NCBI GenBank assembly: GCA_019244185.1
Contig: JAFATB010000006.1
Span: 553,614-617,613 of the forward strand
DNA: 64,000 nucleotides
Source of the DNA: Acidobacteriota bacterium
Lineage (GTDB): Bacteria; Acidobacteriota; Thermoanaerobaculia; Gp7-AA8
Reading direction: 5' to 3'
Position 1 is the stretch's first letter, and each line of letters starts with the position of its first letter. Under the pieces are notes generated by a model, which was not told the origin of the DNA, made no database searches, and saw nothing but the letters and a program-made list of their open reading frames with translations. Positions 27,986 through 35,903 of this stretch are shown one piece after another. A program made the translations under genes and the position numbers.

Positions 27986-28032
27986 TCATCAGGACGAAAG
28001 GGCCGCGATCATGGCAACCGCTCACAAGCGCC
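27986..28032 (+). repeat. Inverted repeat, left arm of precursor cassette 1
   Basis: tcatcaggacgaaagggccgcgatcatggcaaccgctca is complementary to 28356-28398. Confidence 0.8.
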
Positions 28033-28138
28033 GGATTCAGGGACTGCACCGGCGGCATCTCAATTTGCATTCGAAGTCGGTTTAAAGCCGGAACATCGAC
28101 AGCGGACCGCCGTGCGATCCGCCGAACAGCGCCGAATC

Positions 28139-28261
28139 TTACGCGCCGCCGCAGAGAACCGCGACAGCGATCAGGGCGCCGACCGCAAAACCATTCCAGA
28201 AGTCCGTGGCGGCTTCGCTGATGGGGGCGACGACGTTTTCCATTTCTTCGATCATGAGCAT
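28139..28261 (-). CDS. RiPP precursor peptide, CGGA type (40 aa)
   Basis: MLMIEEMENVVAPISEAATDFWNGFAVGALIAVAVLCGGA; AAGGAG RBS; paralog at 30244-30366. Confidence 0.9.
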   Translation of the reverse strand: MLMIEEMENVVAPISEAATDFWNGFAVGALIAVAVLCGGA

Positions 28262-28355
28262 GTGAGTGATCTCCTTTTCCATGTAGTGGGCGATTCGATT
28301 GGGGGTGTAACTGCCGGGGACATGACAACCGGACGCCGAGGGGCTACTGCATCGT

Positions 28356-28398
28356 GGCGCTGAGGGTTGCCGTGATCGCGGCTCTCTCCTCCTGATGA
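28356..28398 (-). repeat. Inverted repeat, right arm of precursor cassette 1
   Basis: Minus strand reads tcatcaggaggagagagccgcgatcacggcaaccctcagcgcc. Confidence 0.8.
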
Positions 28399-28402
28399 CT
28401 CC

Positions 28403-32561: not shown

Positions 32562-32595
32562 GGGATTCTCCGATTGAATGTCGTGGTGATAGGGA

Positions 32596-33024
32596 TTACA
32601 GAGTCACTTCTTCGAGCACCGCGATGCGGGAGAGGCTGACCGGCAGGGCCACAATGGCGGCGATCCCGGCCACGATCCAGCTCACAATGACGGTGCTCAT
32701 CGCGAGCGAGCTGACGAACATGAAGAACGATTCCGGCGAGGTGAACGGGCTCTGTCCGATGACGGCCGGATTCATGAGCACCGCTCCGAGTCCGATCAGC
32801 GAGAACATCGTCCCCGCAATCACCCCCGCCAGGGCCGCCGCCTTCACGCCTTCCCTCGGCGCGAAGTTGCCGGCCACGAAACCGATTCCGACGGCGAGCA
32901 GCAGCGACAGCATGGCCCGCAGCGAGCCGCTGGCCAGGACGCCCATCCGCATCAGCGGAATCTGCGCGGCCACGCCCGTGAGACCGACTGCCACTCCCAA
33001 TCCGACGACGTGTTTGACGTTCAT
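32596..33024 (-). CDS. Small 4-TM membrane protein (possible immunity or accessory protein)
   Basis: Gly/Ala-rich hydrophobic ORF MNVKHVVG...; TAATG-coupled to the upstream enzyme gene. Confidence 0.7.
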   Translation of the reverse strand: MNVKHVVGLGVAVGLTGVAAQIPLMRMGVLASGSLRAMLSLLLAVGIGFVAGNFAPREGVKAAALAGVIAGTMFSLIGLGAVLMNPAVIGQSPFTSPESFFMFVSSLAMSTVIVSWIVAGIAAIVALPVSLSRIAVLEEVTL

Positions 33025-35393
33025 TACGCGCTCACCCTTTCCTGCACGGTCCCGCAGACGGTGCACTGTTCATTGCGGGGATTGTCTTGATAGTGGAACT
33101 CGAGGCTCGGGACGTTGATGTAGAGCAGGCGTCCCGCGGTCTTGACGTCGCCGAGCTTGGCGAGGTGCAGGACCACTTCGTTCGACAGCAGTCCGGCCGT
33201 CGCGGAGACCATCGGTCCGAGCGTGCCGAACGCGCCGCGGTCGAATTTCGGGAACTCCAGCGGATTGCATTCGAGACAGGCGGACTGTCCCGGGATCACC
33301 GTGGCGCCGACGACCGTGCCCTGCGCGAGGAAGCCGCCGCCCGAGAACGGGATGCCCTTCCGGATGCAGGCTTCATTGATGAGCGTAATGGCGTTGACGG
33401 GATTGTCGAGGGCGCGCACGACGAAGGTGCTGCCTTCAATGGCCTCGCTGATCTCTTCGACGTTCTGTACGAATTTGTGCGTCTTGCGGATGCGCAGCTG
33501 CGGATTGAATTCGAGCAGGCGCTCGGCGGCGACGTCGACCTTGTAGCGGCCGATGTCGGCGGGCGTGAAGAAGAGCTGGCGATTGAGGTTGGTGAGCTCG
33601 ATCTTGTCGGCGTCGACGAGATGCAGTTCGCCGATGCCGCAGGAGGCGAGGTTCCACGCCACGTGCGTGCCCAGTCCGCCGACGCCGAGGATCGTGACCG
33701 ACGCATTGCGCAGGCGGTCGAGCGCTTCCAGCTCGCTGCCGCGGACGTTCGCGTTCATGCTGAACCAGCCCAGCTGCCGCGAGTAGCGGAGATTCTCCTC
33801 GCTGAGCTCCCACTCCGACGTATAGCGGAGATAGCGGTGATGCCACAGGCGCTGGATGACGTTCTCGAATTCCGGCAGCCACGCGGCCTGCTCTTTGAGC
33901 CGCGGCAGCGTGTACGAGCCATCGCGCAGCAGCGGGATGAATTCGAAGAGCGACGCCGGCGCCTGCACCGTCAGAGAATCGGGCGCGGTCCAGCCGAAGA
34001 TGAATTCCTGGTTGTCCGTACTGATCACGGTGACGTGCGGATTGAGACGGATGGGACGCTCGGGATCGAGCGTGTAGGTGACGAATGCGGCCGGGGCTTG
34101 CTGACGCGGGCGGGGCGCCGCAACCGCGGGCGCCGCGGCGGCGGCCTGTTTGCGCGCCTTGCGCAGTTGCAGTGCGAAGCGGCCGGCGAACGTCAGCGCG
34201 AGGAGGACCACGGCGCCGGCGACGGCCCAGATGCTGGCACGCGACGAGACGCCGAACCAGCTCGCGATGCGGAACAGGAAGCCGAGACCGCCCGCCCACA
34301 TGGCCGTACCGAACCACATCGATGAGATGCCGAAGCAGAACAGGAGCGCGCGGGTCATCGGCGTCAGCGACAGAACCGCGTTGTAGCGAAGACGCGCGCC
34401 CTGTACGGGACGGCGCAGCATCGCGGAGGAGAGCGTCACGCGCACCCACTCGATGCTGCGGTCGCGGAGATTGGTCATCGGCAGCGCATTGGAGAGCGCC
34501 CAATAGCCGTCCAGACGGACGAACGGCAGCACATTGAGAAGAATCGTGGAGAGATTTGCGGCCGCGAAGATGATCAGCAGGTCCGCATTATGGCGGCCCT
34601 TCAATGCCAGCCACAGGAACATCGTCCCGCTGGTCACGAGGGCCTGGACATAAACGCCGGCAGAGGAGATGACCACGCGTTGCCAGCGATTGCGCAATTG
34701 CCACGAGTCTGTAATGTCCGCGTAGGCGGCCGGCTGCAGGTAATACAGCATGACGCCGAGACTGCGCACCGGCGCGCCATAATGGTGGCAGGCCGCCGCA
34801 TGTCCCAATTCATGAATGAAGGTGACGAGGAAAAACAGGCCGACGATCGTCGCGATCTGCACCGCCGTGAAATTCACGGTGCGGAAGACGTGGCCGATCT
34901 CGCCGCCGTGCGAAATCCCAACACCGAGCGCAATGACGGAGATGAGAATTCCGAGCGCGACGACCGAGCGCTTCATCATGACGCGCGTGAAGGGCGACAG
35001 CCACTCCAATAACGGGTCGGGTTTTCCGAGGTGAATGCGCAGCTGGCCGAAACGGCCCCATTCGAAGCGGCGTTGCGCGGCAGGAGTTTCTTCCGCCTGC
35101 TGGACGACCTGCAGCTTCACAGGCTCGGCGCTCATGCAGATCAACTTCGCTGCCTGGAGGCGGCGAAGGAGCTCTTCGCCCATGGACGCCTCGATTCCGA
35201 GGAGCGCTGCGATCTCCTGTTCGGCGACCTGGCCGTCAATGCGCATCAGCCAGTCGAATTCGCGCAGACCGAGCCGCAGGTAACGGCCGGTTTCGTGATT
35301 GAGCACGAGTCTCGAATCAGGCTCCGGCTGCGGGAGATCCATTTGCAGCTTCGGATTTCGATAGGGGTAGGCCATAGACACACGAATCCTCAT
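33024..35393 (-). CDS. Fused RiPP maturase: RRE (PqqD-like) + M50-like intramembrane metallopeptidase + second RRE-like region + ThiF/MoeB adenylyltransferase
   Basis: LNHETGRYLRL...IDGQ (RRE-like); FIHELGH and NVLPFVRLDGY (site-2 protease); RYSRQ, GVGGLG, DADKIELTNLNRQ, CLEC and CTVC (E1-like). Confidence 0.88.
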   Translation of the reverse strand: MRIRVSMAYPYRNPKLQMDLPQPEPDSRLVLNHETGRYLRLGLREFDWLMRIDGQVAEQEIAALLGIEASMGEELLRRLQAAKLICMSAEPVKLQVVQQAEETPAAQRRFEWGRFGQLRIHLGKPDPLLEWLSPFTRVMMKRSVVALGILISVIALGVGISHGGEIGHVFRTVNFTAVQIATIVGLFFLVTFIHELGHAAACHHYGAPVRSLGVMLYYLQPAAYADITDSWQLRNRWQRVVISSAGVYVQALVTSGTMFLWLALKGRHNADLLIIFAAANLSTILLNVLPFVRLDGYWALSNALPMTNLRDRSIEWVRVTLSSAMLRRPVQGARLRYNAVLSLTPMTRALLFCFGISSMWFGTAMWAGGLGFLFRIASWFGVSSRASIWAVAGAVVLLALTFAGRFALQLRKARKQAAAAAPAVAAPRPRQQAPAAFVTYTLDPERPIRLNPHVTVISTDNQEFIFGWTAPDSLTVQAPASLFEFIPLLRDGSYTLPRLKEQAAWLPEFENVIQRLWHHRYLRYTSEWELSEENLRYSRQLGWFSMNANVRGSELEALDRLRNASVTILGVGGLGTHVAWNLASCGIGELHLVDADKIELTNLNRQLFFTPADIGRYKVDVAAERLLEFNPQLRIRKTHKFVQNVEEISEAIEGSTFVVRALDNPVNAITLINEACIRKGIPFSGGGFLAQGTVVGATVIPGQSACLECNPLEFPKFDRGAFGTLGPMVSATAGLLSNEVVLHLAKLGDVKTAGRLLYINVPSLEFHYQDNPRNEQCTVCGTVQERVSA

Positions 35394-35699
35394 CGGGAAA
35401 ACACTGCGTTTTTGTTGAAAGGCGGAACCGATTGCCTTGCCAGAGCTTCTGCGTCAGTCGTTGCTGTCGAGGAGTTGGCTATTCGTTGCGTTGTATGGCC
35501 GAACTAACTTATTAGTACCTTTTCCAAATTCCAGCGATCCGGCGTTCCGGCGAAAAGATTTTCGGCAGGTATGGCGCTATGTAGTTAAGGTTGCCGCTGG
35601 TTATGGCTGAGCTTTAAAGACGGCAGGCGGGAATGACAGGAGTGTGCTTGCGCTTTTCATACGGCAAACGTCCAACATTTCTCCAGGAGCCCAAGCACT

Positions 35700-35903
35700 A
35701 TGAATTCGCAGCGAAAAGCTCGGCTGTTCATCCTTCTCGGTATGTTCGCGCTCGCGTTCGCCATGACGGTTTCCACGCGTTTCCACCTCGATTTCGCCGC
35801 CGGCTTCGGCTATGTGCTCGGCACCGGCTTTCTCGGCCTCGGCGTCGTGAAACTGCGGCGCGAACCGACGGCTCAGCTGCCGGAACCGAACGCGCGAAAC
35901 TGA
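35700..35903 (+). CDS. Small 2-TM hypothetical protein, divergent from the RiPP operon
   Basis: AGGAG upstream; two hydrophobic segments. Confidence 0.6.
   Translation: MNSQRKARLFILLGMFALAFAMTVSTRFHLDFAAGFGYVLGTGFLGLGVVKLRREPTAQLPEPNARN

Follow-up and report, generated by a model that had tools for sequence, protein, structure and literature searches.

Daptide clusters are described as encoding an intramembrane site-2 protease with an N-terminally fused recognition element (RRE) for peptides that are ribosomally synthesised and then modified post-translationally (RiPPs). They hold about 2.3 precursors per cluster, with the leader ELExMEAP ending in A(-2) and P(-1), and a second RRE protein, DapB, brings the C-terminus to the tailoring enzyme (Ren et al. 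2023, 10.1101/2023.03.08.531785). A further kind of RiPP is made by ThiF-like adenylyltransferases (TLATs), whose known reactions are all reported to begin by adenylating a carboxylate, the adenylate then being captured by a nucleophile. MccB forms a phosphoramidate, PaaA a bicyclic imide, IndF an amide from a Trp indole to the C-terminus, GrcB a thiolactone from a Glu side chain to a C-terminal Cys, and EnfB a macrocyclic imide as well as amidation with added amines; by these accounts each TLAT characterised so far gave a different linkage. Here we present an operon from an Acidobacteriota bacterium in which a 789-aa maturase joins a daptide-type protease to a TLAT and is accompanied by four 40-aa precursor genes. 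It lies on the minus strand of contig JAFATB010000006.1, within a stretch of 64,000 nucleotides (positions 553,614 to 617,613), called the window below, whose numbering is used throughout. The operon probably makes a two-component (alpha plus beta) RiPP of an uncharacterised TLAT family with a daptide-type leader and peptidase and a membrane-active product. Judged by its genes, its most fitting place is in a new family of TLAT RiPPs, so far uncharacterised and outside every characterised class. An earlier note on this DNA had proposed a new class; no characterised family was found to match, and since TLAT RiPPs are already recognised, the proposal is narrowed to a new family of that kind.

According to the open reading frame (ORF) listing of the window, the minus strand from 35393 to 28139 forms one tightly packed operon in the order fusion, protein with four transmembrane helices (4-TM protein), Yip1 protein, adaptor, beta-1, alpha-1, alpha-2, permease and beta-2 (Table 1). 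The co-orientation of these genes, as the earlier note had read it, agrees with this listing and with the Pfam and NCBIfam matches.

Table 1. Coordinates of the operon features in the window, in order of transcription
Feature	Coordinates	Strand	Basis
789-aa fusion maturase, RRE - M50 - linker - RRE - ThiF	33024-35393	-	Pfam, NCBIfam, AF2 model
N-terminal RRE-like winged-helix domain, residues ~9-96	35106-35369	-	structural matches to RRE domains
M50/site-2-protease membrane domain, residues ~126-419, six long helices	34137-35018	-	PF02163, NF041824
Second RRE-like peptide-clamp domain, residues ~436-528	33810-34088	-	AF2 model, Foldseek
ThiF/E1-like adenylation domain, residues ~532-781	33051-33800	-	Pfam ThiF, E 1e-50
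142-aa 4-TM protein	32596-33024 (ORF listed to 33066)	-	Pfam/NCBIfam: no family
Yip1-domain membrane protein, weakly YknW-like	31794-32561	-	PF04893, E 1.1e-6
Periplasmic membrane-fusion adaptor, MacA/HlyD type	30526-31797	-	TIGR01730, E 9e-51; HlyD_D23; HlyD_3
Precursor beta-1, 40 aa, core D-F-W and GxxxG, tail C-G-G-A	30244-30366	-	
Precursor alpha-1, 40 aa, core W and GxxxG, tail L-S-S, without Cys	30034-30156	-	
Precursor alpha-2, 40 aa, core same as alpha-1	29838-29960	-	
MacB_PCD and FtsX permease, no ATPase domain	28403-29728	-	PF12704, E 1e-32; PF02687, E 2e-20
Precursor beta-2, 40 aa, 80% identity to beta-1, tail C-G-G-A	28139-28261	-	

The Pfam matches of the fusion protein are Peptidase_M50 (residues 183-260) and ThiF (residues 549-779). 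The NCBIfam model NF041824 (daptide_HExxH) covers residues 23-407 with its profile positions 13-376 of 379 (E 1.8e-67, 228 bits). This upholds the daptide-type recognition and peptidase chassis of the earlier note, the same combination of RRE-protease and A-P leader being described in the daptide paper. An AlphaFold2 (AF2) model was built from 36 homologs, with a mean predicted local distance difference test (pLDDT) of 84.5. Its successive parts are a strand-strand-three-helix module (residues 27-88), a stretch of six long helices (residues 126-419), a disordered Ala/Pro-rich linker at residues 416-431, a second module of strands and three helices at residues 436-524 (strands 436-477) and the ThiF fold last. 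In the topology presumed from this model the soluble modules must face the cytoplasm, since the ThiF domain needs ATP.

When the N-terminal 100 residues were modelled by themselves, the pLDDT was 88.8. The best structural matches of this domain were RREs of RiPP enzymes: TigE (Z 9.1), TbtB (7.7), the PbtF RRE (7.6), TbiB1 (6.9), MccB residues 1-86 (6.7), lasso B1 (6.6) and PqqD (5.0), and the number of RREs among the top structural rows argues for an RRE-like domain. The Pfam scan of both RRE-like segments gave no PqqD or RRE family, so that the assignment is a structural one. With its two RRE-like modules the fusion departs from the earlier note, which had counted a single RRE. Compared by sequence with solved proteins, the C-terminal 360 residues are closest to MccB (E 7.5e-36), followed by MoeB (4e-23), ThiF (1.5e-22) and PaaA (4.7e-21). 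By fold (Foldseek), MccB is matched over about 357 columns and across both of its domains with a target-normalised template modelling (TM) score of 0.82, and PaaA with 0.79; PaaA residues 12-231 align with fusion residues 451-661.

Across the 36 homologs the M50 residues H194, E195 and H198 (HExxH) and N287, P290, D295 and G296 (NxxPxxxLDG) are invariant. The same holds for the ThiF GxGGxG motif, D594, R605, Q606, K618, D663 and the Zn-site residues C706/C709/C777/C780, and these invariant ThiF-domain residues line up with the same motifs in MccB. With the motifs so conserved, both active sites look functional from the alignment. An alternative has to be weighed in which the ThiF half is a non-catalytic docking scaffold, the M50 half removes the leader and the peptides remain unmodified two-peptide bacteriocins or small membrane proteins. 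Thiopeptide and linear azol(in)e-containing peptide pathways are described in which E1-like or ocin-ThiF-like proteins only bind leaders, as with YcaO partners, and the conserved Cys treated below is missing from four of 30 peptides. The operon, however, holds no YcaO or other partner enzyme, the nucleotide-binding, catalytic and tetracysteine residues are retained throughout, the ThiF domain is nearer to catalytic MccB than to any other solved protein, and the M50-ThiF pairing is kept whether fused or split; a scaffold role is very improbable. A complex prediction that combined a pair of 430-789 fragments with the beta precursor, ATP and Mg gave scores of 0.06 and 0.03 against a mark of 0.32 and is uninformative on binding.

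The precursors are held in short minus-strand ORFs listed at 30244-30366, 30034-30213, 29838-29960 and 28139-28282; in the two longer ones the 40-aa reading begins at an internal ATG (30156 and 28261, respectively). A ribosome-binding site (AGGAG, AAGGAG or AAGGAA) sits 7-8 nt 5' of the ATG in all four, and the leader common to the four peptides is IEEMExxVAP. A back-translated EEME..[VI]AP pattern was matched four times in the window and in none of 100 dinucleotide-preserving shuffles; the earlier claim of four 40-aa minus-strand ORFs with good ribosome-binding sites and a common leader stands. Between alpha-1 and alpha-2, whose cores are identical, the DNA shows three synonymous differences, a single substitution in the leader and a different stop codon, a pattern expected of a translated peptide.

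For comparison 30 peptides were aligned, from the window and 13 related loci; the peptides of L072, L093, L094 and L190 as well as L060 were left out. In the leader, E8 and E11 are conserved in at least 90% and the consensus ends in V-A-P. In the core, which is 22-29 residues long, G24 and G28 form a GxxxG motif conserved in at least 90% of both alpha and beta types, followed by about ten hydrophobic residues and a short tail of small residues. Alpha cores usually open with an aromatic residue before GxxxG, and beta cores have a conserved D-F. A Cys is found among the last four residues in 26 of the 30 peptides: it is the terminal residue in 12 (with the L015 beta peptide, ending G-G-C, counted in) and is followed by D, S, SS, AS, GGA or GGC in 14. 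The tails are thus C, CD, CS(S), CAS, CGG(A/C), LSS, TS and VS. Both window alpha copies, the L015 alpha peptide and the L018 beta peptide are free of Cys and end in SS, TS or VS; to judge from the alignment, the window alpha peptides have lost it. None of the 30 peptides ends in Thr and none in Asn.

C-G-G-A, G-G-C, C-S-S and similar endings are reminiscent of the flexible Gly-Gly tails on E1 substrates, which raises the alternative of an E1-style conjugation. The ThiF-activated tail would then be joined to an amine outside the peptide, for example on a lipid head group, in the cell wall, on a protein lysine or on the partner peptide, or converted to a thiocarboxylate as in ThiS/MoaD, and the helix would become a transferable membrane anchor or part of a covalent alpha-beta heterodimer. 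The fused enzyme is membrane-tethered and the split ThiF proteins bear a hydrophobic C-terminal extension, both in keeping with such a role, and EnfB is reported to amidate a peptide C-terminus with external primary amines. Against it, no E2-like, JAMM, sulfurtransferase or rhodanese partner is present in the operon, and the nearest relatives are intramolecular RiPP enzymes. The alignment of 36 homologs also has no conserved Cys in the loop past the first CxxC, where the catalytic Cys of ThiF presumably lies. Conjugation, and with it either outcome for the helix, is given about as little credence as the scaffold role.

A first locus scan with the single fusion protein gave no relative and was repeated with alignment A1. 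A word-indexed search delivered 42 proteins with both Pfam domains at 44-100% identity, the named ones originating from Acidobacteriota-type metagenome bins. A profile search of 1.84 billion representatives delivered 2609 proteins at E ≤1e-30. Among the 150 matches listed were just one full-length close fused representative, one 641-aa partial protein and fragments. The profile also picks up DapP-like proteases and numerous RRE-ThiF proteins that stand alone (about 360-480 aa). In all eight close fused loci examined (L015, L096, L102, L099, L016, L018, L104 and L100) EE(M/L)E..VAP peptides lie directly upstream of the enzyme on the same strand, and alpha and beta are both present in seven of the eight. 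The leader DNA pattern matched six of 173 loci, always just 5' of the enzyme gene. These relatives have two or three precursors upstream, and the four of the window are placed downstream of the enzyme, around the permease gene. The order fusion, 4-TM, Yip1, adaptor and permease is retained in L096, while L102 retains the adaptor, two FtsX permeases and Yip1. In L018, from a Bryobacterales bin, the fusion frame is broken after 54 codons (10001-10300) by a frameshift or sequencing error.

Nine of the 11 distant loci examined have an alpha/beta pair and, after it, a DapP-like M50 gene with an adjacent and often overlapping but separate RRE-ThiF gene, the product of which carries the C-terminal extension mentioned above. 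These split loci, each with both peptide types, belong to Pseudolactococcus chungangensis (L055), a Lactococcus bin (L074), a contig binned as Saccharibacteria (L072), Vallitaleaceae (L068), Actinomyces (L025), Lachnoclostridium (L093), Clostridium grantii (L094) and Streptococcus (L180 and L190). A 50-60-aa TM protein is encoded between or after the M50 and ThiF genes in L055, L074, L072 and L190, and ABC ATPase and ABC-2 permease genes follow in L055 and L190. The expectation of the earlier note that leader-bearing peptides would stand beside homologs of the enzyme is thus borne out in the close and in most of the distant loci. The linkage of enzyme and peptides across phyla is shown here computationally, as are gene content, domain homologies and invariant catalytic motifs.

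L072 and L074 have identical alpha and beta peptides, and their Rgg-like regulators and M50 proteins are near-identical; wrong binning of Lactococcus DNA, or else a very recent transfer, probably accounts for the Saccharibacteria contig. L060, from a Clostridiales bin, was kept out of the alignment because its two identical peptides are divergent and free of Cys; these 39-aa ORFs (9558-9909), upstream of a DapP-like M50 gene, open with an acidic leader-like segment, and G-G-E closes their Ala-rich core. L044 (Nonomuraea fastidiosa) was rejected as a member: its hydrophilic 41-aa peptide ending in Asn points to a different cluster type. That peptide (10845-10970) lies between RRE-ThiF and M50 genes and recalls a microcin-C-type precursor combined with an intramembrane protease.

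A peptide profile search of a collection of 5.8 billion sequences delivered 83 short proteins, including both types from Streptococcus pneumoniae. One streptococcal beta cluster occurs on at least 1000 contigs, under the names 'hypothetical protein' or (UniRef) 'Class IIb bacteriocin, lactobin A/cer...'. Besides the pneumococcal and related peptides P0264, P0272, P0231 and P0240, the variants P0291 and P0301 have frameshifted or extended C-termini, which suggests decay in some strains. The L055 M50 protein matched three of 201 Streptococcaceae genomes and the beta peptide three of 301 Streptococcus genomes; the system is rare at the species level. Its carriers range from soil Acidobacteriota to lactococci, streptococci, Actinomyces and Clostridia. 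Since the peptides are common in Streptococcus, the product may matter for competition or signalling in well-studied microbiomes.

The Firmicute loci also bring up the possibility that the same biosynthesis yields, instead of an antimicrobial, a pheromone for quorum sensing: a short hydrophobic peptide, perhaps cyclised, that the intramembrane M50 protease would mature. An Rgg/GadR/MutR-family regulator (TIGR01716, E 9e-22, above cutoff) adjoins the Lactococcus locus L074, an AraC-type regulator adjoins L055, and LysR and XRE regulators are found near L190. A review describes the metalloprotease Eep as maturing streptococcal short hydrophobic peptide (SHP) precursors and many Rgg loci as adjoining ThiF or radical SAM genes. 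The GrcB thiolactone product is likewise described as a proposed quorum-sensing effector, and thiolactones are borne by autoinducing and GRC peptides. Yet two GxxxG peptide types are kept side by side across phyla, which is a hallmark of two-peptide membrane-active bacteriocins (PMC2850506), the split loci are accompanied by small TM proteins at a position typical of immunity genes and by ABC exporters, and cores of 22-29 residues are long for SHP-type pheromones. No regulator was noted adjoining the window operon; a sigma-54-type activator (labelled by eye) lies at 38216-39148, past housekeeping genes. A signalling product is considered unlikely, although less so than the scaffold role or conjugation.

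Turning to the described systems, the operon resembles daptide clusters in its RRE-fused M50 leader peptidase, its acidic A-P leader (EEMExxVAP as compared with ELExMEAP), its several short precursors and their hydrophobic helical cores. In daptides, C-terminus-directed chemistry strips the charge of the carboxylate, and the same outcome is proposed for the window system. It differs in that a TLAT is fused to the protease or encoded beside it, instead of DapB, DapC, DapD and DapM. Aminotransferase, alcohol dehydrogenase and methyltransferase families were matched by none of the nine proteins scanned with Pfam (five of the operon and four neighbours; the rest of the genome was not searched). 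Together with the lack of a C-terminal Thr this agrees with the earlier statement that the daptide tailoring set is missing. ThiF does not occur in the text of a 2025 paper on the diversity of daptides.

With MccB, PaaA, GrcB, EnfB and IndF the system shares an RRE or peptide clamp joined to a ThiF domain, intact ATP, Mg and Zn motifs and an adjoining short precursor. It has, in the broad sense of a TLAT RiPP, both the RRE-ThiF architecture with intact motifs and conserved short precursor genes next to it. Unlike the known TLATs, however, the window enzyme is tethered to the membrane and coupled there to an M50 protease, and the precursors are of two types, their GxxxG cores being transmembrane-like. 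Missing from them are the C-terminal Asn that MccA has, the PaaP EEN, the GrcA E-x3-C and the WWIII and NWYFI tails of the EnfA and IndA types. ORF listing and Pfam showed no MccD-, MccE- or MccF-like genes in the operon, an E-x3-C C-terminus occurs in none of the 30 peptides, and Pfam found no radical SAM gene of the GrcC/GrcD type in the operon. Membership among true daptides, microcin C, pantocin, GRC and enterofaecin/Ind peptides was rejected, as each has defining features that are absent here.

All characterised two-peptide bacteriocins are reported to contain GxxxG motifs, which are thought to pair the helices in the membrane (PMC2850506). The window system resembles the class IIb bacteriocins lactococcin G and the plantaricins in having two adjacent peptides, each with GxxxG, predicted to be helical and membrane-inserting. 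It differs in its daptide-type leader, which ends in A-P and has no double-glycine, in the modifying enzyme that always adjoins, and in its neutral or anionic cores. No C39-peptidase domain was found by Pfam among the five operon proteins scanned.

An uncharacterised 'CxxxC type' TLAT cluster has been described with 24 hits, almost exclusively from Streptococcus; it is said to encode regulators as well as a fusion of a TLAT with a peptidase, and to have one C-terminal residue under strict conservation (Wang et al. 2024, PMC11256085). Compared with its main-text description, the streptococcal loci found here have split M50 and ThiF genes and peptides with the endings ...ACC or ...AGC, where no CxxxC is obvious; the two could overlap. 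No description of an M50-ThiF two-peptide system was found in the literature on TLAT RiPPs, daptides and pneumococcal loci, the networks of PMC11256085 and PMC12150305 possibly holding it unnamed. In the accessible text of two reviews 'M50' does not occur (PMC12596934) and 'fusion' does not occur (PMC12250964), and neither text describes a membrane-bound enzyme. Relative to the literature examined, the new features are the coupling of a TLAT to an intramembrane peptidase by fusion or overlapping genes, transmembrane-like GxxxG substrates and the two-peptide design. The family gives reason to suppose that the leader-peptidase chassis of daptides can pair with other tailoring chemistry at the same end of the peptide.

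For the two-component TLAT RiPP favoured here, the course of the biochemistry, the site of cleavage, the attacking nucleophile and the activity of the product are all inferred, as follows. The RRE-like domains of the membrane-anchored fusion would bind the acidic leader IEEMExxVAP of the 40-aa precursors. The cytoplasmic RRE2-ThiF module would then adenylate a carboxylate of the core with ATP, the alpha-carboxylate of the small flexible tail being the likeliest target by analogy with E1 substrates, MccB, EnfB and IndF. Capture of the acyl-adenylate by a nucleophile would remove the negative charge of the C-terminus; a near-terminal Cys or Ser could give a (thio)lactone, an amine an amide or lactam. 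The M50 domain would cleave the leader after A-P, as DapP does in daptides, and the 4-TM protein and the Yip1-adaptor-FtsX set would export the GxxxG helices, protect the producer, or both. The mature helices may pair via GxxxG and act jointly in the target membrane, like two-peptide bacteriocins.

A uniform thiolactone from Cys to the C-terminus was considered and rejected: the position of the Cys varies, it is often terminal, and it is missing in four of the 30 peptides. The variable spacing and the frequent terminal Cys make a single small thiolactone ring unlikely. Candidates are a GrcB-like link between the terminal Cys and an acidic side chain where the core begins, an amide or lactam, and a link between the peptides; the role of the Cys may instead be limited to an alpha-beta disulfide formed once the peptides are exported. 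Any one of these end-products, taken singly, is rather unlikely. The wider proposal is a tentative one, not quite an even bet: that this is an undescribed RiPP class spread across phyla, in which the C-termini of two-component GxxxG peptides are activated with ATP at the membrane by an MccB-like TLAT coupled to a daptide-type peptidase, and in which the end group or macrocycle is new among ThiF products. The candidate end groups that belong to it share that tentative standing: a (thio)lactone, either with a large ring or at the C-terminus, an amide or lactam, or alpha and beta joined covalently. If the proposal is true, a widespread pneumococcal peptide system has so far been overlooked. Cultured and non-pathogenic carriers are Pseudolactococcus chungangensis DSM 22330 (L055) and Clostridium grantii DSM 8605 (L094), and the soluble RRE-ThiF half should be expressible.

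Several observations weigh against the two-component TLAT RiPP. The system is known here from its genes alone. The NF041824 score lies below the 300-bit equivalog cutoff, so that the protease half is a relative of DapP and not an ortholog. The daptide precursor models also stay below their curated cutoffs (NF041806, E 0.008; NF041808 against a streptococcal alpha peptide, E 5e-4 and 19.8 bits with a cutoff of 25). The Z values of the N-terminal RRE are moderate and in a range common for the method. The cores are neutral or anionic, typical bacteriocins being cationic. The Cys varies in its distance from the C-terminus and is absent from the four peptides named above, including both window alphas; the distant L094 beta peptide and L060 are wholly without it. 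As to the dedicated exporter claimed by the earlier note, an adaptor and a permease are indeed present, but the ATPase partner is absent from the window, which contains none of the 71 PF00005 ABC-ATPase matches of the genome. Nor is an ABC ATPase found among the listed ORFs of L096 (permease 14970-16196) and L102 (5228-7722), despite their adaptors and MacB/FtsX-type permeases.

YknWXYZ, which consists of a Yip1 protein, an adaptor, an ABC ATPase and an FtsX permease, protects against a peptide toxin. The window operon shares the Yip1 protein, the adaptor and the FtsX-type permease with it and differs by the absent ATPase gene and the weak YknW match. The Yip1 protein scores 29.0 bits with PF04893, just over the cutoff, and 32 bits with NF052650 (YknW_fam, E 6.9e-8) against a cutoff of 110; it is also present in L096 and L102. 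The TIGR01730 match of the adaptor is above cutoff, and the start of the permease is probably an internal ATG near 29629. The ATG of the 4-TM protein at 33024 overlaps the stop codon of the fusion gene. This protein matches no Pfam or NCBIfam family and has no Atlas score ≥0.9, but a 153-aa homolog takes the same position in L096; it is a candidate immunity or accessory protein.

The operon block has a G+C content of 59-66%, as against 69-71% in the flanks, and housekeeping genes stand on either side according to the ORF listing. In 60 related genomes, 34 of them of the same genus and including the unpublished genomes G002, G024 and G042, no match to the 789-aa protein spans both halves. From the low G+C of the block and this tally the cluster looks sporadically distributed and was probably acquired. 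A scan of the window gave no sigma-70-like promoters and no excess of terminator-like structures, and is uninformative for a GC-rich host. The stretch was found in the read archives of six DNA runs (rhizosphere, rock, root and soil metagenomes), with no RNA run listed.

In the 560-bp gap upstream of the operon a 67-aa hydrophobic ORF is listed on the plus strand (35700-35903) with a weak DUF2518 match (E 0.007, below cutoff). It gives no sign of being a gene and no tie to the operon was seen; it lies within the extent, to 35903, given in the earlier note. Further along the window, a 59% G+C patch contains a gene for a 493-aa eCIS_core protein (PF13699, E 1.2e-26) at 24378-25859 on the minus strand, adjoining a tRNA-Asn gene (25923-25998, minus strand) and a subtilisin-like gene (22893-24290, labelled by eye). 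This patch may be a separate small acquired island with an effector domain of the contractile-injection-system type.

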